From the NCBI GenBank assembly GCA_964608455.1, contig CAZSNM010000001.1, positions 11,030-75,029 of the forward strand: a stretch of 64,000 nucleotides of DNA. Reading direction: 5' to 3'. The DNA comes from an uncultured Candidatus Bathyarchaeia archaeon. GTDB taxonomy: Archaea; Thermoproteota; Bathyarchaeia; 40CM-2-53-6; DTDX01. A program made the translations under genes and the position numbers. Position 1 is the stretch's first letter, and each line of letters opens with the position of its first letter. Shown here in pieces: positions 3,449 through 25,938 of this stretch. The notes under the pieces are model-generated. The model did not search any database. It saw only the letters and a program-made list of their open reading frames with translations, and was not told where the DNA came from.

Positions 3449-4219
3449 ATGTTAATGATTTTAATACCTATTCGAACAAAATTGATTAAAGAAGGTGATG
3501 ATTTACCAAATATAATTCTTTCATCCTTAAGAAAAAATAAATTGAAATTAAAAAATGGGGATATTCTTCTTATAGCTAGCAAAGTAGTTTCAGTTGTTGA
3601 GGGAAGAATAGTTAAATTAAAAGATGTAACTCCTAGCTTGAAAGCTAAAGAAATAGCTAAAGAAATTGATTTAGATGAAAGGCAAGTTGAATTAATTTTA
3701 AATCATTCAGAAAAAATTTATGGCAAAGTTCATAAAGCTCTTTTAACCTTAAAAAATGGTTTTTTAATTGCAAATGCTGGAATAGATAAATCCAATTGTA
3801 AACCTGATGAAATTATTTTATGGCCTAAAAACCCTCAAGAATCAGCTGAAAAACTTCGTAAAGAAATATTTAAGCGAACAAAAAAACGTGTTGGAATAGT
3901 AATTGTTGATAGTAGAACCACTCCTTTAAGATGGGGTACAATAGGATTAGCTTTAGGTTTTGCAGGATTCCATCCAATTAAAGATTATAGATTTAAAAAA
4001 GATATTTTTGGAAATACACTTCAAATAACACTTCAAAATTTAATTGATGATTTAGCTTGTGCAGCTCATCTTCTTATGGGTGAAGCTAGAGAAAAAATTC
4101 CTATAGTTTTAGCTAGGGATGTACCAGTAAAATTTAGTTCTAAAATAAATGTTAATTCAGTTTTTATTCCACCTGATAAATGCTTATACATGAAAGTTCT
4201 TGAAGAAAAGCAAATTTAA
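3449..4219 (+). CDS. CofE-like protein (coenzyme F420-0:L-glutamate ligase family)
   Basis: About 256 aa. The N-terminus IPIRTKLIKEGDDLPNIIL resembles CofE family starts. The call is from memory and not verified. Confidence 0.5.
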   Translation: MLMILIPIRTKLIKEGDDLPNIILSSLRKNKLKLKNGDILLIASKVVSVVEGRIVKLKDVTPSLKAKEIAKEIDLDERQVELILNHSEKIYGKVHKALLTLKNGFLIANAGIDKSNCKPDEIILWPKNPQESAEKLRKEIFKRTKKRVGIVIVDSRTTPLRWGTIGLALGFAGFHPIKDYRFKKDIFGNTLQITLQNLIDDLACAAHLLMGEAREKIPIVLARDVPVKFSSKINVNSVFIPPDKCLYMKVLEEKQI

Positions 4220-5712
4220 TTCTTAATATAATCATTTACTAATCGTTGCAATTCTTCTAAAGCTTCATTAACTTTATTAATTCGAGTTGAAAGTTGAACT
4301 TTATATTCTTCAATTTTCTTTTTTATTTTTGAAATTTCTTTTTCAACTTCTTTAGGTGAAGGTGCGCCTAAAGAACGTTTTTCTAAAAGCGCTTTTTTAA
4401 AATCAAGAATATTTTCCAATTCTTCTTGGGATACATTAATGGTTTTTCCCAAAACTTGATTTGATAATTGTTCAATTAAATTAGGTGAAAGCTTATTCAT
4501 TTTTTTATTTTCATAAAGCATTTTTTTAATCAATTCTCCAACAAGTTTATGGGCTTCCCTAAATGATAAACCCTTTTTTAAACTTAATTCTTCAGCTAAT
4601 TCTGTGGCCATTAAATATCCTTCATCAATCATTTTTTCTATTCTAGTTTTATTCAAATTTAAAGTTTTTATTATGTTTATGAAAATTTTAAGTGAAGCAT
4701 TTACAGTTTTAAAGCATCTCCATAAAAGCTTTTTTGTCTCCTGTAAATCTCTATTGTATCCTGAAGGTAAACCTTTAAAAATTGTTAATAAACCTATTAA
4801 GGAACCGAAAACTTCTCCAGTTTTTCCCCTAATTAACTCTAGAATGCATGGATTCTTTTTTTGAGGCATAATGCTTGAGGATGAAGCATATTCATCAGCT
4901 AACTCAATGAAATTGAACTCTCTTGAAGACCATAAAATTAAATCCTCAACCATTCTAGTTAAATTTAACATTAATATTGATAAAGCTGCAATTGTTTCAA
5001 CTTCAAAATCTCTAAAGCTTGAAGCATCTATAGAGTTTTCTACTATTCCATCAAAACCTAAAAGTTCTGTTGTTCTAACTCTATTTATTGGAAATTTTGT
5101 TCCAGCAATAGCACATGCTCCTAAAGGATTTAAATTTATCCTTTTATAGCATTCATTTAATCTTTCAAAATCTCTAGAGAAAGCTTCAGCATAAGCCATT
5201 AAATAATGAGAAAAAAGGCCGAGCTGAGCTTGTTGAAGATGAGTATAAAGAATTATAGGCGAATTCAATTCTTTTAAAGCTAAATTTATTAAAGCTTCGA
5301 TAAGATTTAATAAATTATCTGAAGCTTCATTTATTAAGGATCTAAGCTTCATTCTGATATCTAAAGCTACTTGATCATTTCTTGATCTAGCTGTATGAAG
5401 TTTTCCCCCAGCTTCAACTCCAATCCTCTCTATAACTTTGCTTTCTAAAAATTCATGAATATCTTCATAACCTTCCTGAAGTTTAATTTTTCCATCAATA
5501 AAATCTTTTTTAATTTCTTCTAAAACTTCAAGAATTTTTTTTAATTCTTCTTTTTTTATTATTCCCTGTTCATAAAGCATTATATTATGTGCTTCTGTTC
5601 CAACTATATCTTCAATTAATATTTCCTCGTCTTCTTTAAGAGATGAAATAAATTTTTCAGCTTCTTTATTTAATGGTTTATTTAATCTTGATCTATAAAT
5701 TCCTTTCTTCAA
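4216..5712 (-). CDS. argH: Argininosuccinate lyase
   Basis: Contains the fumarase/ASL signature GSSIMPQKKNP. At 498 aa it is about 35 aa longer than typical ArgH because of a C-terminal coiled-coil tail. Confidence 0.92.
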   Translation of the reverse strand: MKKGIYRSRLNKPLNKEAEKFISSLKEDEEILIEDIVGTEAHNIMLYEQGIIKKEELKKILEVLEEIKKDFIDGKIKLQEGYEDIHEFLESKVIERIGVEAGGKLHTARSRNDQVALDIRMKLRSLINEASDNLLNLIEALINLALKELNSPIILYTHLQQAQLGLFSHYLMAYAEAFSRDFERLNECYKRINLNPLGACAIAGTKFPINRVRTTELLGFDGIVENSIDASSFRDFEVETIAALSILMLNLTRMVEDLILWSSREFNFIELADEYASSSSIMPQKKNPCILELIRGKTGEVFGSLIGLLTIFKGLPSGYNRDLQETKKLLWRCFKTVNASLKIFINIIKTLNLNKTRIEKMIDEGYLMATELAEELSLKKGLSFREAHKLVGELIKKMLYENKKMNKLSPNLIEQLSNQVLGKTINVSQEELENILDFKKALLEKRSLGAPSPKEVEKEISKIKKKIEEYKVQLSTRINKVNEALEELQRLVNDYIKN

Positions 5713-18815: not shown

Positions 18816-20156
18816 TCATCTAAAAAATTCCTTATAAATTGCGTTGATAGCCTTTTTTAATTTCCCTACTTTAATAATAAAAATGAGATTGGAACTGCTT
18901 GAGCTTTTTGCAATCATTAATATTTCAATATTGTTTTTACCAAGCACCATTATTAAATGCTCTAATACGGTTGTATTATGTTTTAAAAATTCTCCTGTAA
19001 CGCTTAAAGCTCCTACATTTTTTCCTTTCACATTTGGTTTATAACCTTTTTTTTCTAAATTTTCTTTAAGGATCAATTCCACTCTCCTTTTTGAAATAAA
19101 CATATGTTTGGGGCTAATAGTTATTGAAATCTCATTTGCTGAAGTAGCAACATCATAAACATCGACCCCATTGCTTGATAAAATTTCTGTTACACTAGTT
19201 AAGTAGCCTCTTCCTTCAGGAGTATTCATAAGCTCATCGTTTATAGTTAATAAATAGAATTTTCTTGCTGAAACTCCAGCTATTGGATTTCTATAATTTG
19301 TTGCTGTTTCCCTACATATTAAGGTTGAGGCTTCGCTTTTAAGGTTTTTAACTTTAATTATGATATTATGGGTTTTAGCGATTTTAATGGCTAATGGATG
19401 AATAGCTTCAATCCCCCTCCAAGTCAATTCTCCAGCTTCTTCATAACTTAACTTTGAAATAACCTTGGTTCTTCCATATTTAGGTTCAACAATATATATT
19501 CCTGGCACATCTTTAACTATTTCATAATCTGCTCTTATAGCTGCTGCAACAATGGCTCCTGTAACATCAGTGCTATTTCTACCTAAAAGTTTATATGAAC
19601 CTGTTTCTAATTCTTTACCAACAAAACCTCCAACAATAGGTATAACATCATCATTTAGATACTTTTCTAAACTTTCCTTAACATTTTTTACACTTAAATC
19701 TTCCTTTATAACCCCTTTAGAATCAACTATTATTCCAACTTTATATCCATCAATATAAATTGAGTTATACCCTAAATTTTTTAAAAAATGAGAAAGAATA
19801 ATTCCAGAATGATTTTCACCTGTTGAAACAAATTGATCATAAGTTATATTTTCTTTTAATCTTTTTAATTCATCATTTAAAAGTTTAAATGCCTCTTCTC
19901 TAATATTTAAGTTTGAAATACCTTTAAGAATTTCTTTATATCTATTTTTTAGATTTAAAATTGTTTCTTCATTTCGTTCTTCATAAAGCTTAATTAAAGT
20001 ATTTGTAACTCCTTTAGGAGCTGAAACCACAGGTACAACATTATATTTTTGAATTAAATTGGTAATATAAAAAGAAACTTCTAAAAAGCTTTTTTTATTA
20101 CGCAATAGTGAACCGCCAAACTTTGATACAATTCTTCCCTTCATTTTTTCTATCAC
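18816..20156 (-). CDS. Aspartate kinase
   Basis: The amino-acid kinase fold starts at VSKFGGSLL. The 446-aa protein has a C-terminal ACT-like region. Confidence 0.88.
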   Translation of the reverse strand: MIEKMKGRIVSKFGGSLLRNKKSFLEVSFYITNLIQKYNVVPVVSAPKGVTNTLIKLYEERNEETILNLKNRYKEILKGISNLNIREEAFKLLNDELKRLKENITYDQFVSTGENHSGIILSHFLKNLGYNSIYIDGYKVGIIVDSKGVIKEDLSVKNVKESLEKYLNDDVIPIVGGFVGKELETGSYKLLGRNSTDVTGAIVAAAIRADYEIVKDVPGIYIVEPKYGRTKVISKLSYEEAGELTWRGIEAIHPLAIKIAKTHNIIIKVKNLKSEASTLICRETATNYRNPIAGVSARKFYLLTINDELMNTPEGRGYLTSVTEILSSNGVDVYDVATSANEISITISPKHMFISKRRVELILKENLEKKGYKPNVKGKNVGALSVTGEFLKHNTTVLEHLIMVLGKNNIEILMIAKSSSSSNLIFIIKVGKLKKAINAIYKEFFR

Positions 20157-20166
20157 TTAAAAGATT

Positions 20167-20769
20167 TTAAATAGATTCTTGCCATATTTTTTGAAATTCT
20201 TTTTCATAAATTTTAGCTAACTCTATGCTTTTAATAATAATCATATTTTCATTATTTTTTGCTTCAGCATTTAAAGACCAATTGTAACTTCCTGTAATCA
20301 CAATCCATCCATCAATTATTGCTACCTTATTATGCATTAATGCGGGGTTAGAGTCAAGTTTAACATCTACTCCAGCTTTTTTAAGCTTATAATATTCACT
20401 ATACTCATTTAGCTGCTCCCTTTCTAAAATAACTTTAACTTCAACACCACGTTTATATGCTGCTACTAAAGCGTCGCCTACGTCATCTAAAGTAAAACTA
20501 TAAATCATAATATGAATTGAAAAATTTGCTTTATTAAACCAATAAATTAGCTTTTCTTTACAACCACCATTAGGTGAAAAATAAACTTCATATAAAACTG
20601 AGTGATTCACCGTTTTATTTTCTTCTATGCAACAAGCAGCTACTGTTAAAGTTTTAGTTATAACCATTTTGCTTTTCGCTTGAGTATTCCAGGCAGTTGC
20701 ACCAACTATGACTCCAGCTAAAAAGGAAAGAATCAAAAGGAAACCAATTATGGTTTTCTTCATTTTCAC
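20167..20769 (-). CDS. Phospholipase D-family (Nuc-like) nuclease with N-terminal signal/TM anchor
   Basis: A single HKD motif, HNKVAIIDGWIVITGSYNWS, preceded by an N-terminal hydrophobic segment. Confidence 0.8.
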   Translation of the reverse strand: MKMKKTIIGFLLILSFLAGVIVGATAWNTQAKSKMVITKTLTVAACCIEENKTVNHSVLYEVYFSPNGGCKEKLIYWFNKANFSIHIMIYSFTLDDVGDALVAAYKRGVEVKVILEREQLNEYSEYYKLKKAGVDVKLDSNPALMHNKVAIIDGWIVITGSYNWSLNAEAKNNENMIIIKSIELAKIYEKEFQKIWQESI

Positions 20770-20841: not shown

Positions 20842-21711
20842 TTAAACTTGAGTTTGCTTTGCTCCACATATTGGACAGAAATTTGCATCTATTGGAATTC
20901 TGGCTCCACATTGAATGCAATACTTTACTTCCTTAAATGTTATTAATGTTTGTTGATGTAAAATCCGCTCTTTAACCAACATAGAATAGTAATAAAGTGT
21001 TAATGAGACAAAATATATGGGCGCGACCAAAGCTGAAATAATGGAAGAAATTAAAAAACTAATATAAATATTTGCTTTACCCGAAATAGATTGAATAGCT
21101 CCAGTGATAAACGATGTAGCTCCAACCATAATTGTTAAAATTAGCATTAAACCAAAAGTTTTCATCCATCGTTTTGCTACAAGTTTCTTGCTCCTTTTTA
21201 AGCTTGAAATAATCCCTTTCTCCTCTACTATAATCGCCGGAATAAAAAGAAAAAATATTATTGAGAAAATTATTCCTGGAATAACTAAAGCCATAAAACC
21301 CACTACAATTAATAAACCTGAAATAACGCTTGCTGCTAATAAAACAAACAGTTTTTTGGCTACAACTTTAAAAGCTTCGATCAAACCTACAGTTTTTTCC
21401 TCAAGCAAACTAGATGTATATTTAATAACTATTCCTCCGGCAACCATATTTAAAATCCAACCCACTATCGCAACAAGTAACGCTATAATAAAGAATATTT
21501 TCAACTGTGAAATTAAAGCATTAAAGTTATTTTCAAAAGTTGCTTGAAAAGGAATATAAATTGAGGCAACACTAACTATTAAGCTTATTAACACGTTTGA
21601 AACAAGCATTGGAGTAAACACTTCTATAAAATGACTTTTGTAAATTGTTATGGCTTGAAGTAAAACTTCAAAATTACTAAGCTCTCTTAAAGGTTTTTTA
21701 ATTTCATCCAT
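20842..21711 (-). CDS. Polytopic membrane protein (DUF4013-like) with C-terminal C4 zinc ribbon (paralog of 17900..18676)
   Basis: The C-terminus VKYCIQCGARIPIDANFCPICGAKQTQV is nearly identical in motif to the paralog. Multiple TM helices. Confidence 0.6.
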   Translation of the reverse strand: MDEIKKPLRELSNFEVLLQAITIYKSHFIEVFTPMLVSNVLISLIVSVASIYIPFQATFENNFNALISQLKIFFIIALLVAIVGWILNMVAGGIVIKYTSSLLEEKTVGLIEAFKVVAKKLFVLLAASVISGLLIVVGFMALVIPGIIFSIIFFLFIPAIIVEEKGIISSLKRSKKLVAKRWMKTFGLMLILTIMVGATSFITGAIQSISGKANIYISFLISSIISALVAPIYFVSLTLYYYSMLVKERILHQQTLITFKEVKYCIQCGARIPIDANFCPICGAKQTQV

Positions 21712-21717
21712 TTTTAT

Positions 21718-22287
21718 TCACCTTTTATAAATTTTTAAAACTCTAATTGTAAGCATTGTTCCGATTAAAATTAATATTGCGCATAAAATAAATGTTTGTC
21801 TAAAACCTATTGTATCTGATAGAAAACCTCCAAGCCCAGGGCCAATTATCCATCCAAAATACCAAGTCATATTATATATGCCTATGGCTTCCCCCTTATG
21901 TTCCGATGGAACAGAATCTGTTATTAAAGCTACTCCTGAAACTCCTAAAGCTGCCCATGCTATACCTTCAATAGCTTGAATAATATACATACCTATTAAA
22001 GTTTTAGCTAAAGAATAGGAAAGAAAAACTATGAAAAATAAACTCATTGAAATTAATAAAATTAACTTAGAGCCTATTTTATCTGAAATTTTACCAAATA
22101 AAGGTGCTGCTACAGCCCCTCCAATAGAGCCTATTGTAAACACAACACCTATTTGTGTTTTAGACGCCCCTAAATCAGCTATAAACAACGATAAAATGGA
22201 GTAAATCATTCCAGAGCAAACTGTAAGTGGAAAAAGGGAAATGCAAATCCAGTAAACATTTCGTTTTGGCATAATAATCCCTCCCAA
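21718..22287 (-). CDS. Six-TM MFS-like half transporter (possible truncated MFS)
   Basis: MFS motif A-like FGKISDKIGSK between TM2 and TM3. At 189 aa it is half the size of a canonical MFS. Confidence 0.45.
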   Translation of the reverse strand: MGGIIMPKRNVYWICISLFPLTVCSGMIYSILSLFIADLGASKTQIGVVFTIGSIGGAVAAPLFGKISDKIGSKLILLISMSLFFIVFLSYSLAKTLIGMYIIQAIEGIAWAALGVSGVALITDSVPSEHKGEAIGIYNMTWYFGWIIGPGLGGFLSDTIGFRQTFILCAILILIGTMLTIRVLKIYKR

Positions 22288-22517
22288 AATTTAGGTAAAT
22301 AAATGTAAAATTGTCAACTGCTAATAGGAACAAATAATACTACTAAAGAAGGGGGGACAAAATATTCTTAGTTTATCGATTTATTTAAAGTTTGCTTATC
22401 CATAATCTATTTTTATAAATATAATACTAAATAGATTTTATTCTTTCTCTACATCATATTTTCAAATCTTAATCAATCTCTTAACATTTTAATAGAAAAT
22501 CTTAAATTTTAAAAATA

Positions 22518-24719
22518 ATGATCTTTAATTTAATGAATAAAAAACTTTTTTCTGAACTTGAATTATTCCAAGATGAAATTTCAAAAATCTTTAAAGAAAA
22601 CCCTTTAAAATTAATTAAATTCTCTGCTGTTTTAAAAAGTATTTTTAAAAATTTAAATGTAGATGAAGGTTTAAAAAATGAAGTTTTAATTCTTCTTTGC
22701 AAAGGTTTAGTTTTTAATAAAAAAACTTTTAGAAATATACCTAATCTTGAGCAATTAATTAATGAATATGAAAATTCCAGTGCAGTTTTGCTAGATTATT
22801 CTAAATGTTTTTTTGCTAAAGCTATTTCTAAAATTTTTAATGAAAAAATAAGCAAATATAAAAATGAAGCTGCAAGAAGGCTTTTTTTAAGAGATTTATG
22901 CGAATTAACAGATGTTTTACATCCCCTTTCATTAGAGAAACTTTTAATAAAAATTGATAAGCTTCAAGCTAATGAAAGAACAAATACGCTTTTTATAGAG
23001 TTTACAAATAATCTAGAGGAGTTAATTTACTCAAAATGGAATCCAGATTTGGAAGTTGAAAAGAAAATTGATGAAGCGCAAAATGAAATAAATGTTTATA
23101 TGGCTAGAATGGAGAATTTATCAGGTTTTAAAAGGGGATCAATTGGGAACTATCAAGAAGGATTAATAATTCACTGCTTTTTTGATCCCTGGTTTGATGA
23201 AAAATCTCCACTTTGGGGCGTTAGCTTCTATCCTATTTTAAATATTTTAAATTTGCAACCACCTTACATTTTTTTTGATGTTTTAAGAAGAGGATTATTA
23301 GCTAGAGAAGCAGCTCATTTTTTTACTCCAAGTATAATGGAAAAAATGGAGAAGGCTTATGAACAAATGGATTATTGCGCTTATAAAATTCTTGATGATT
23401 TTGAAGCTGAATTTTGGGAGTTTGCTAGACATGGATTAAGAGAAGAATCTAAACAATTTGATGGAATAAACTACTATTTAGAATGGGAAGCTATTATTGG
23501 AAAGGATTTTTTAAATAATCTTTTTTCCAGATTAAAAAGCATTAGTCGCTTTAGAGCTGAAATTGATTTTTCAGAATATCAATCAATAGTTGATTCTTTA
23601 GCTTTAAAACCTAAACGTATTGAATTAAATCAAGAAGAACTTTCTTTATTAAGCTTTTTATCTGAAAAACCTTTAGCTTCAGTTAGTGAGCTTTCCCAAA
23701 AATCTGGTTTAACCATACCAACTGTTCAAAAACTTCTTAAAACTCTTAAGCTTAAAGCTAATATTTGGCCAAGCCTCTTAGTAGACTTAAATAAACTTAA
23801 TATAAAATGCTTTTTAGTTTTTTTAAAGGTTATTCCACGTATATTAAATGAAGTAATTAATATCATTTGGCTTTTTCCTTATTGCGGAAGAATTTATAAA
23901 GTTTTTGGAGAAACAAATATGTTATGCTATTTTCAAATTCCATCAAGAAATGAAGATTTCATTCATGAATATTTATCTATTCTTAAAAGAATGGATTTAA
24001 TAGAGAAAACCTTCCTTTTTAAAGTTGAAGATTTCTATTACAATTTTAACCCAAGATTTTATGATGCAAATATTCATGATTGGAATGTGCCTTGGGATGA
24101 ATGGGGTCTTTGGCTTAAAGAATATCTTTTAACAAAAGGATGGTTGCATGCAATTAAATGTAAAAAAGAGCAAAAAAGAAAAATTAAAATAAATAGGGTT
24201 GATCTTGAAATAATTCGTTTATTAAGAGTTAATGCCAGATATCCATTTTCTGAATTGGGGTTAAAACTAGGTGTTAGCGGAGCCTATATTGGACAAAGAG
24301 TTAGAAACTTAATAAATTCTAAAGTCATAACACCTGCAATTGCATCTTTTAGAATAGGTTTAGATGAATCCATTTTTGCCGTTTTTGATTGTGAAGAAGA
24401 GGAATTAACCGCTATTAAATCTGCTTTTGATGAATTACCCATGTGGCAAGGATTTAAAATAAGTGGTGATATGGAAGGGTTAGCCTCAATGATTTATGTT
24501 CCAACGGGTGAAACTCAAGAGCTTCTCTACGCTATAAGCAAATATTTAATTGAATCCAAAATAGTTAACAAATGTATGATTCATATTATAGAGCGATGGA
24601 CTGGAATGAGAAGATGGCTTCCAACAGAATTATATACTAAAGATGGTGAATGGATTTTTAATAAAGAAGAATATTTGGAACGATTAAAAGAAGAAATTGA
24701 AAAATTAAATAAAGAATGA
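22518..24719 (+). CDS. Large hypothetical protein with an unknown N-terminal domain (~370 aa) and two tandem Lrp/AsnC-like winged-HTH + effector-domain-like modules
   Basis: Module 1 is ELSLLSFLSEKPLASVSELSQKSGLTIPTVQKLLKTL. Module 2 is DLEIIRLLRVNARYPFSELGLKLGVSGAYIGQRVRNLINSKVI...FRIGLDE. Size is 733 aa. Confidence 0.5.
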   Translation: MIFNLMNKKLFSELELFQDEISKIFKENPLKLIKFSAVLKSIFKNLNVDEGLKNEVLILLCKGLVFNKKTFRNIPNLEQLINEYENSSAVLLDYSKCFFAKAISKIFNEKISKYKNEAARRLFLRDLCELTDVLHPLSLEKLLIKIDKLQANERTNTLFIEFTNNLEELIYSKWNPDLEVEKKIDEAQNEINVYMARMENLSGFKRGSIGNYQEGLIIHCFFDPWFDEKSPLWGVSFYPILNILNLQPPYIFFDVLRRGLLAREAAHFFTPSIMEKMEKAYEQMDYCAYKILDDFEAEFWEFARHGLREESKQFDGINYYLEWEAIIGKDFLNNLFSRLKSISRFRAEIDFSEYQSIVDSLALKPKRIELNQEELSLLSFLSEKPLASVSELSQKSGLTIPTVQKLLKTLKLKANIWPSLLVDLNKLNIKCFLVFLKVIPRILNEVINIIWLFPYCGRIYKVFGETNMLCYFQIPSRNEDFIHEYLSILKRMDLIEKTFLFKVEDFYYNFNPRFYDANIHDWNVPWDEWGLWLKEYLLTKGWLHAIKCKKEQKRKIKINRVDLEIIRLLRVNARYPFSELGLKLGVSGAYIGQRVRNLINSKVITPAIASFRIGLDESIFAVFDCEEEELTAIKSAFDELPMWQGFKISGDMEGLASMIYVPTGETQELLYAISKYLIESKIVNKCMIHIIERWTGMRRWLPTELYTKDGEWIFNKEEYLERLKEEIEKLNKE

Positions 24720-24738: not shown

Positions 24739-25938
24739 ATGAATAAGCAAACCATTTGTATGAAGGACCTTCTTAAGTTTAGAAAAGATTTATGGATTTT
24801 ATCTTTTGCAGTTTTTCTTCCTTATTTTGCTTCAGGAATGATTGCTGCATTTATAATGGTTTGGCTTAGAGAGTTAGGGGCTTCATTTATTGATGTGGGT
24901 TTAATCAACACTGTTAGCAACCTAGTTTTAGCTTCATCCTTTTTTATTGGAGGGATTTTAAGCGATAATTATAGTGGAAAACCAATATTTTTTTTAGGTT
25001 TATTTTTAACTTTTCTTTCTTCATTGATTTATGGAATTGCAGCATGGCTTCCTATTTGGTTTCTGGTTGGTTTAGGTTTAATTTTTGGTCGAATAGCTAT
25101 AGGATTTAGAGAATCATCATCCTTTCAAATAGTTTATGAAACTTCAGAAAAACATAAGAAAGGCTCATCTTTTGGTCTTTTATCAACCTTTAGACAATTG
25201 GGTTATATAATTGGCCCTATTATAGGAGGATTAATAGCATACTTTTTTGGGTTAAAAGCTCCATTTATATTAGCTCCATTTATAATTCTTATGGCAATAC
25301 CTCTTATTATTAAAATAGGCTTAAAAGAAAATAAATCTGCTAACTTAAGTATGTCTTCATCATTTAAAGAAATTAGAAAGTTTTTAAACTTAAGTTCTGG
25401 AGTATCGATTTTGATTTTTCTTTCTTTATGGGATCAATTCTTTTTAGAAATTGGAAATCCATTCTATATGATTTTTCTTAATGAGGAATTTAATGCTCCA
25501 CCATATATGCTTGGATTATGTTTTACAGTTATGTCTTTAAGCACATTTGTTTTCAGTATGGTGGGAGGAATTTCATCAGACTTAATTGGAAAAAGAAAGC
25601 CATTAATAACTCTTGGAACTTTATTAATGGCTTTAAGCGTTGGTTTAGTTGCTTTCGCATTTAATCCATGGATGTTTGTAGCCAGCTATTTTATAGCTGG
25701 TGTTTCAACAGCAATTTCTAATACTGCTATTCCATCTTATTTTGCGGATGTTTTAAAAGAGAGAGCCTCAACAATTTTTGGTTTCAAATTTACACTTATG
25801 TATTTTGCTGGAGGAATTGCTCCTTTAATTTCAGGTTGGATAATTCAAGCTTTTAATTCTTTAAGGCTTCCATTTATAATAAACTTTATAGGTTTAATTA
25901 TAGAAATTTTTCTTTTAATAATTTTCTTTAAAGAATAA
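24739..25938 (+). CDS. MFS transporter (12 TM)
   Basis: 399 aa with about 12 hydrophobic helices and a two-repeat organisation. Confidence 0.75.
   Translation: MNKQTICMKDLLKFRKDLWILSFAVFLPYFASGMIAAFIMVWLRELGASFIDVGLINTVSNLVLASSFFIGGILSDNYSGKPIFFLGLFLTFLSSLIYGIAAWLPIWFLVGLGLIFGRIAIGFRESSSFQIVYETSEKHKKGSSFGLLSTFRQLGYIIGPIIGGLIAYFFGLKAPFILAPFIILMAIPLIIKIGLKENKSANLSMSSSFKEIRKFLNLSSGVSILIFLSLWDQFFLEIGNPFYMIFLNEEFNAPPYMLGLCFTVMSLSTFVFSMVGGISSDLIGKRKPLITLGTLLMALSVGLVAFAFNPWMFVASYFIAGVSTAISNTAIPSYFADVLKERASTIFGFKFTLMYFAGGIAPLISGWIIQAFNSLRLPFIINFIGLIIEIFLLIIFFKE

Follow-up and report, generated by a model that had tools for sequence, protein, structure and literature searches.

Bathyarchaeia are abundant, uncultured archaea of sediments, and their gene regulation is essentially unknown. 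The present analysis concerns a gene on a stretch of 64,000 nucleotides from one such archaeon (contig CAZSNM010000001.1 of assembly GCA_964608455.1, positions 11,030 to 75,029 of the forward strand; hereafter the window), an AT-rich sequence with a GC content of 26–36%. Its plus strand carries an unbroken open reading frame (ORF) at 22518..24719, which encodes 733 amino acids (aa) in the ORF listing. An earlier note, made from the letters of the DNA, had described a 733-aa protein of atypical architecture, in which an unknown N-terminal domain of ~370 aa precedes two tandem Lrp/AsnC modules. The frame is real, but the true start is likely the second ATG, at 22533, giving a gene at 22533..24719 (+) and a protein of 728 aa: the ATG at 22518 is ATA in a relative with 97% identity (L028), and every homolog and every public gene call begins at the position of Met6, so translation probably starts there. 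This 728-aa protein is labelled X, with residues numbered throughout after the 733-aa ORF. Public annotation of X proteins reads only ‘DNA-binding Lrp family transcriptional regulator’. The architecture is indeed atypical, joining two tandem modules to an N-terminal domain of 360 aa, and we propose below that the protein is a transcription factor whose sensor derives from a peptidase.

Both C-terminal modules are complete Lrp/AsnC units, each made of a winged helix-turn-helix (wHTH) followed by a RAM domain. Module 1 occupies aa ~366–510 (23613..24047, +), as delimited by the family profile against PDB and by an AlphaFold2 (AF2) model, and module 2 occupies aa ~555–692 (24180..24593, +), as delimited by Pfam and the same profile; the earlier note had placed two modules at aa 385–470 and 560–650, where they do lie, with spans that are in fact wider. 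In Pfam, module 2 matches HTH_AsnC-type (PF13404) at aa 560–598 with 44.1 bits against a cut-off of 27, a match that exceeds the cut-off in all 33 aligned homologs, and module 1 of the window protein gives only a sub-threshold MarR/IclR-type wHTH at aa 370–412. Compared with PDB, the X family profile locates module 1 at profile positions 361–499 and module 2 at 547–691. Positions 548–691 correspond to residues 7–154 of the 164 of PH0140 from Pyrococcus (E 4e-14), and positions 363–499 to residues 6–147 of the 151 of PH0061 (E 1.4e-10); module 1 also matches PH1519/FL11 (E 2.5e-10), and its RAM part matches the stand-alone 75-aa RAM proteins 2cvi and 2e1a (E 2e-4). The two modules proposed in the earlier note are thereby borne out (E 4e-14 and 1e-10), and the HTH_AsnC/Lrp similarity of the C-terminal half, whose absence it had named as telling against its reading, is present in both the 44.1-bit Pfam match and the PH0140 and PH0061 alignments.

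The predicted structure agrees, as the AF2 topology runs twice through a wHTH and a beta-alpha-beta-beta-alpha-beta fold, and Foldseek gives TM scores of 0.58–0.69 for the modules over whole Lrp chains. The top Foldseek match of the entire protein is NirDL (4ch7 and 4czc; 372–374 columns, E 3e-9 to 1.5e-8), the only match of solved structure that spans both modules, with single Lrp chains ranking after it. This match over both modules supports well, as an architecture, the single-chain pseudo-dimer that had been suggested. Between the modules lies a Trp-rich linker or extension (aa ~511–554; 24048..24179, +; alignment and AF2) with invariant W522, W526, D527, W529 and G530, in which AF2 places a helix at 526–538 and disorder at residues 546–552. 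After module 2 comes a C-terminal extension (aa ~693–733; 24594..24716, +; alignment, AF2 and conservation) with conserved W694, R699, P702, L705, W712 and F714. The Trp-rich extensions behind the two modules are similar (WDEWGLWLKE after module 1, W..F...YL after module 2), which suggests that the tandem arose by duplication of an already extended Lrp unit.

The N-terminal domain was described as unknown in the earlier note, and this holds at the level of families: aa 1–362 have no credible match in Pfam, NCBIfam or the PDB sequences, by single sequence or by profile. Its fold is, however, recognizable. Modelled alone by AF2, the domain reaches a predicted local distance difference test (pLDDT) score of 89.6 and a predicted TM score (pTM) of 0.90, with helices up to residue ~202, three short strands (217–246), a helix at 254–268, another at 280–291 and further helices. 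On this model it is predicted to consist of a helical bundle (aa ~1–205; 22518..23132, +; helices 2–202, pLDDT mostly 85–97) and a subdomain with the thermolysin-like catalytic-domain fold of gluzincins, the fold of M1 aminopeptidases and thermolysin, devoid of its zinc site (aa ~206–362; 23133..23603, +). Within this subdomain, helix 254–268 corresponds to the ‘active-site’ helix and helix 280–291 to the ‘glutamate’ helix.

No HExxH motif is found anywhere in the N-terminal domain. To set the register, the domain profile was aligned by hhalign to the catalytic domain of LTA4H (sequence 100% identical to PDB chains); the score is not significant (E 0.54), and the alignment was used for register only. 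This lone local alignment lays L-L-A-R263-E264-A-A-H267 on V-I-A-H295-E296-I-S-H299 of LTA4H, and W233-G234 on the strand of the G-G-M-E-N motif, as the topology predicts. Arg263-Glu264 (23304..23309, +) would thus stand at the His-Glu position of HExxH, and the GxMEN exopeptidase motif of the M1 family is not kept, the aligned segment being W233-G234-V-S-F. Conservation was assessed over 40 representatives of less than 70% identity, which included a distant group of 17–20% identity. W233, P248, R263 and W300 are invariant in the domain, and G234, E264, E282, N245, F221 and F222 are conserved in at least 90%. With R263 invariant and both E264 and E282 at least 90% conserved, no other polar site in the domain is as well conserved as the old catalytic centre. 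Position 267 is variable among homologs (H/R/N/S/Y), and both zinc-ligand histidines thus appear to be gone, the first replaced by an invariant Arg and the second by a variable residue, with the Glu kept. Glu282 (23361..23363, +) is predicted to lie on a helix structurally equivalent to that bearing the third zinc ligand in gluzincins; it follows position 267 by 15 residues, the third-ligand Glu of gluzincins follows the second His by 18–20, and it is the invariant Y286 that occupies the canonical spacing in X.

The N-terminal domain is rare and known so far only fused to wHTH modules. A profile search of all 1.84 billion cluster representatives returned only 24 proteins, the full-length matches including the second, distant group (~17–20% identical, 620–683 aa). 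All nine full-length matches that were scanned with Pfam carry wHTH modules, so the domain appears to work together with them.

X as a whole is a real, conserved gene, present so far only in Bathyarchaeia, judged by every relative that has an organism label. Among 5.8 billion clustered proteins, a word-indexed search found 34 full-length homologs (672–742 aa, 30–100% identity, the whole query covered), the named ones all labelled Bathyarchaeota or Bathyarchaeia; pattern scans added 13 loci in GTDB species representatives, likewise all titled Bathyarchaeia or Bathyarchaeota, and 80 metagenome loci. The homologs align collinearly over their full length and share conserved residues in each domain, and the AF2 model of the whole chain, built with the homolog alignment, is compact and multi-domain (mean pLDDT 86.1). 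The gene appears to be single-copy, often surrounded by housekeeping genes (ThrRS, MeaB/CobA).

About 107 X loci were compared for gene context. The genes flanking X in the window are those that the earlier note had named: a half-size gene of the major facilitator superfamily (MFS) (21718..22287, −; 189 aa; Pfam MFS_1, 114 bits, half of the profile only) and a 12-transmembrane MFS transporter of the drug/H+ antiporter type (24739..25938, +; 399 aa; Pfam MFS_1 and efflux-type families of NCBIfam), which starts 19 nt past the stop codon of X on the same strand. Clade A, which includes the window (64–100% identity), has the order half-MFS(−), X(+), MFS(+), Lhr helicase(−), and clade B (45–48%) the order V4R(−), X(+), MFS(+), Lhr(−). 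Clade C (42–46%) keeps V4R(−) and X(+) without the MFS gene. In clade D (~30%), ThrRS(+) and a multi-transmembrane protein of 157–185 aa (+) precede X(+), and in clades E and F (27–34%) the neighbours include a TrmB or RadA-like gene upstream and a convergent MeaB/CobA gene downstream. The clade D multi-transmembrane protein (L010:5426-5899, L002:7339-7896 and ~30 further loci) is in every case encoded immediately before X, in the same orientation, and has no Pfam or NCBIfam match. No neighbour is universal across the clades.

The X–MFS pair is kept in clades A and B, down to 45% identity and with a spacing of 19–110 nt, and is absent elsewhere. Because it sits within a wider syntenic block (Lhr, PadR, S26, TBP), the adjacency argues only weakly for a functional link. 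Three unrelated kinds of transporter adjoin X, namely the MFS protein (clades A and B), the half-MFS protein (clade A only) and the small multi-transmembrane protein (clade D), and this variety mildly favours a link to efflux. The proposal that X regulates the neighbouring transporters is thus weakly supported, in that it agrees with the MFS gene kept in clades A and B and not with its absence from the other clades or with a half-MFS gene confined to clade A.

The divergent intergenic region between the half-MFS operon and X measures 245 bp with 20% GC (22288..22532). Clade A alignments (the window, L028, L029 and L012) contain two conserved blocks there, TATTTAAAGTTTGC at 22382–22395 and the AT-rich TTTTAATAGAAAATCTTAAATTTT at 22487–22510, which are candidate promoter or operator elements; the second is located where the TATA box and B recognition element of a leaderless or near-leaderless X transcript are expected. 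Clade B has a conserved non-coding block 20–120 nt upstream of the X start, CAAAATGRAGCGATAATCTGAAATG ... TTTTAGAAATATA ... AACAAAACTAAACAAGAG (L013:2040-2155, L014:4870-4985, L015:3020-3127 and L001:7770-7880), a candidate promoter plus operator. A bacterial promoter and terminator scan, a method inapplicable to archaea, gave no enrichment over shuffled sequences, and Rfam returned nothing, either for the 20–27 kb part of the window or for the L013 intergenic region that contains the repeats.

In the sister clades, this intergenic space holds additional features. The V4R–X intergenic regions of clade B are long and contain 18-bp tandem repeats that correspond to tiny ORFs on the V4R strand, each laid out as a Shine-Dalgarno-like GGAGGTGA, 4–5 nt, a TTG start, a peptide repeat and a stop. 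Their product is M-x-(R-D/E-G/R-G-P-F) with 1–3 copies of the repeat; there are one to four micro-ORFs per locus (four in L001), the last ending ~40 nt before V4R (minus strand; L013:1673-1736 and 1810-1873, L014:4649-4702, L015:2665-2730 and 2805-2870, L001:7271-7621). Three near-perfect 90-bp tandem repeats at L001:7278-7563 each comprise one MRDGGPF micro-ORF and a separate ribosome-binding site for it, and on their opposite strand a gene caller had placed a spurious repetitive ORF of 131 aa. Clade C has one micro-ORF at the same place, encoding M-x(1-4)-G-P-G-D-P-R-P-(L/F or stop) or MRYARPRRSPMP(F/Y); those of the GPGDPRP type lie on the minus strand just upstream of V4R (L006:~2017-2050, L016:~4720-4755, L020:~4193-4228, L034/L035, L038 and L045). 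In L004/L005, L043 and L046 the micro-ORF is of a third type, MRYARPRRSPMPF/Y.

The copies vary almost purely synonymously: in pairwise comparisons of the clade B repeats, the 37 codon differences of L013 and the 13 of L014 are all synonymous, with 0 nonsynonymous in either locus, and the GPGDPRP core exists in six distinct nucleotide versions of the same peptide, with all six variable columns at third codon positions. For this reason the micro-ORFs of clades B and C are under selection as peptides. The alternative that the 18-bp repeats of clade B are operator arrays was considered and rejected in favour of coding micro-ORFs, since nearly all differences between the copies fall at synonymous sites. 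The peptides could equally be a signal, a partner of V4R, or a leader or arrest peptide; several micro-ORFs end in Arg-Pro-stop, as does the TnaC arrest peptide. V4R itself is similar to the C-terminal domain of MsvR, which senses redox state. Searches of the window for V4R homologs and for Gly/Pro/Arg-rich micro-ORFs found neither, and no V4R match was found in clades D–F, where the micro-ORF search was confined to the hexapeptide repeat of clade B. Both features bear on the X family and not directly on the window locus.

Stated barely, X is rather probably a DNA-binding regulator. The fuller model, in which we have about even confidence, makes it a Bathyarchaeia-specific, ligand-sensing one-component transcription factor built from a pseudo-peptidase sensor and a single-chain Lrp dimer; DNA binding, ligand and target genes are proposed as follows. 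Since two complete units are fused, one chain would supply the two HTHs and the RAM–RAM pair of a normal Lrp homodimer, and the head-to-tail units may bind DNA as an Lrp dimer formed within a single molecule. The N-terminal domain, being peptidase-derived, most likely no longer cleaves peptides; its old substrate groove would bind a small ligand, most plausibly a peptide, an amino acid or another carboxylate, or possibly a partner protein, and this binding may modulate the DNA binding or the oligomerization of the Lrp part. X would probably act on the 245-bp divergent control region, from which, to go by gene order, it could govern its own transcript, with or beside the downstream efflux-type MFS gene, and/or the half-MFS operon. 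Co-transcription of X and the downstream MFS gene is plausible, and X may plausibly be tied to efflux genes: the adjoining transporters fit a known trait of Lrp-type regulators, the control of exporters encoded next to them, PA2577 and an EamA-like transporter being one reported example (PMC8707732).

A number of observations weigh against this model. Foldseek of the N-terminal domain returned nothing significant (best E 0.22; LTA4H and ColAP at E 1.7), and the likeness to gluzincins is structural only; because these scores and that of hhalign are insignificant, the active-site register is one that we infer. The Pfam RAM model AsnC_trans_reg (PF01037) has no match in the 33 homologs, so the RAM (effector) halves of X have diverged. 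NirDL and AhbAB use the Lrp fold as an enzyme scaffold. In the window, a T5 run immediately follows the stop codon of X and makes co-transcription with the MFS gene uncertain. Finally, the neighbours of X change between clades, and in clades C, E and F no transporter adjoins it, so the regulon of X may be broader than proposed, or X may serve another function.

The most serious competitor to regulation is catalysis. X could be an enzyme whose N-terminal domain is a hydrolase and whose active site is non-canonical, being based on Arg/Glu or differently metallated; the Lrp-like modules would then serve as allosteric amino-acid-binding (RAM) and oligomerization units, a part similar to that of ACT and RAM domains in metabolic enzymes. 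That the most conserved polar residues of the domain, R263, E264 and E282, lie at the would-be gluzincin catalytic centre is what such an enzyme would predict, as is the retention of Glu264, the equivalent of the catalytic base; the apparently single-copy gene, often amid ThrRS and MeaB/CobA, and the catalytic use of the Lrp fold in NirDL and AhbAB are also in its favour. Both zinc-ligand positions are nevertheless lost, one to an invariant Arg and the other to a variable residue, the G-x-M-E-N motif is absent, and canonical AsnC/MarR-type recognition-helix signatures, above the Pfam threshold in every homolog, would be needless in a pure enzyme, all of which makes this reading unlikely. Far more doubtful is the narrower idea of an enzyme of the sirohaem-decarboxylase type, that is, a relative of NirDL/AhbAB with an extra N-terminal domain. 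NirDL is the top Foldseek match and the only solved structure to cover both modules, and 5 of 33 homologs show a weak match to the NirdL-like_HTH model of Pfam (best E 2e-4). The modules match bona fide Lrp regulators, however, at E 1e-10 to 4e-14, and AhbA/B and NirDL give no profile match at E<=1e-3; the window protein itself matches neither the NirdL-like HTH nor AsnC_trans_reg2 at E<=1 in Pfam, and no haem or d1 biosynthesis gene lies beside X in any inspected locus. Membership of this family was rejected on these three grounds: profile similarity, family models and haem-pathway neighbours are all missing.

The micro-ORFs of the sister clades raise another prospect, that X is the receptor of an archaeal peptide circuit. 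Holding short peptides is what M1 aminopeptidases are made for, and the groove of a dead aminopeptidase could bind micro-ORF peptides of the RDGGPF and GPGDPRP(L/F) types. Such binding would switch the state of the single-chain Lrp pseudo-dimer on DNA, and the adjacent MFS protein or another small transporter would transport the peptide; in clade A the peptide genes would lie elsewhere or have been lost. The presence in clades B and C of conserved micro-ORFs that precede V4R and diverge from X, their almost purely synonymous variation, their several copies per locus (up to four, in L001) and the M1 aminopeptidase fold predicted for the N-terminal domain would all suit a receptor. Against this stand the absence of micro-ORFs and V4R from the window and from clade A, the lack of a signal sequence in the peptides, and the equal fit of leader or arrest peptides for V4R; the type of peptide, moreover, follows phylogeny, so that its co-variation with X proves nothing. 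We consider such a circuit unlikely, and somewhat less probable than a hydrolase. Least credible of all, to the point of being negligible, is that the ORF is an assembly or frameshift artefact that unites separate genes, the condition under which the earlier note would have withdrawn its claim. One 474-kb public contig, within a 90%-identity cluster, does carry a near-identical X in pieces of 210 aa and 420 aa (P0061 and P0062), which may reflect either a frameshift in that genome or faulty assembly of it and is the sole sign of a frameshift anywhere in the family. More than 100 independent loci, from many samples, have the same contiguous architecture (620–742 aa, 17–100% identity), and the AF2 model is a compact multi-domain protein (pTM 0.71); the artefact was rejected on the strength of these conserved full-length homologs. 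The homolog search that the note had advised thus exposed a genuine, if atypical, architecture.

Comparison with known systems places the proposed regulator between several of them. Each module is an end-to-end homolog, in sequence profile and fold, of archaeal Lrp/AsnC proteins, or feast/famine regulatory proteins (FFRP; PH0140, PH0061, PH1519/FL11, LrpA), with the AsnC-type HTH signature intact. These regulators are single-module chains of ~150 aa that form homodimers or octamers, whereas X has two modules in one chain, adds a Trp-rich extension per module and an N-terminal domain of ~360 aa, and has RAM halves too diverged for the Pfam model. NirDL resembles X in that two Lrp-like modules are naturally fused in one chain to form a pseudo-dimer, and it is the best structural match of the whole C-terminus, but NirDL and AhbA-AhbB are enzymes with no DNA-binding role and no N-terminal domain, and X has no haem-gene context. 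With respect to gluzincins (LTA4H, ERAP1, PepN and tricorn factor F3; thermolysin), X has R-E-x-x-(variable) in place of HExxH and WGVSF in place of GxMEN, lacks the N-terminal beta-sandwich and the C-terminal ARM domain, and has no detectable similarity at the sequence level.

TAF2, a subunit of TFIID, is a catalytically dead homolog of M1 aminopeptidases, but a eukaryotic general factor without Lrp modules, and offers an analogy to X, not a relationship. IrrE/PprI and ImmA (COG2856) combine a zincin-like domain with an HTH in one chain, and IrrE also has a sensor domain of the small-molecule type. Unlike X, they keep an active HExxH, cleave a repressor and use another type of HTH, and none of them occurs among the listed structural matches of X. 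The RRNPP/ComR systems of Firmicutes share with X, on the peptide-receptor reading only, a layout of regulator gene, tiny peptide ORFs and transporter; they are bacterial, however, they sense through a tetratricopeptide repeat domain in place of a zincin fold, and the window lacks the micro-ORFs. A literature search found no description of the X architecture, and a design in which an Lrp dimer is hard-wired into one chain together with a sensor made from a metal-less zinc peptidase is most likely new. If the model is true, X would be a tractable entry point to signal sensing in Bathyarchaeia, as a soluble protein with a candidate class of ligands and a 245-bp control region, and a clean prokaryotic example of a pseudo-enzyme turned into the sensor of a transcription factor; the sister-clade micro-ORFs would provide a lead to translated hexa- to tridecapeptides in archaea, whether as signal, leader peptide or V4R cofactor.

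Around X, PADLOC gave only weak matches at the HTH level (CasR/Csa3 wHTH) and no sign of a role in defence. The half-MFS gene is intact and 80–98% identical in the clade A lineages L012, L028 and L029; its conservation equals or exceeds that of X, so this is a functional gene and no remnant. It heads a tight row of minus-strand genes, which continues with a DUF7847/YciC-like zinc-ribbon membrane protein (20842–21711), a PLD-like protein (20167–20769) and an aspartate-kinase-like gene (18816–20156). In clade C, the gene directly downstream of one X homolog (L006:4756-5307, +) encodes a protein of 183 aa with two RAM (AsnC_trans_reg) domains and no HTH.

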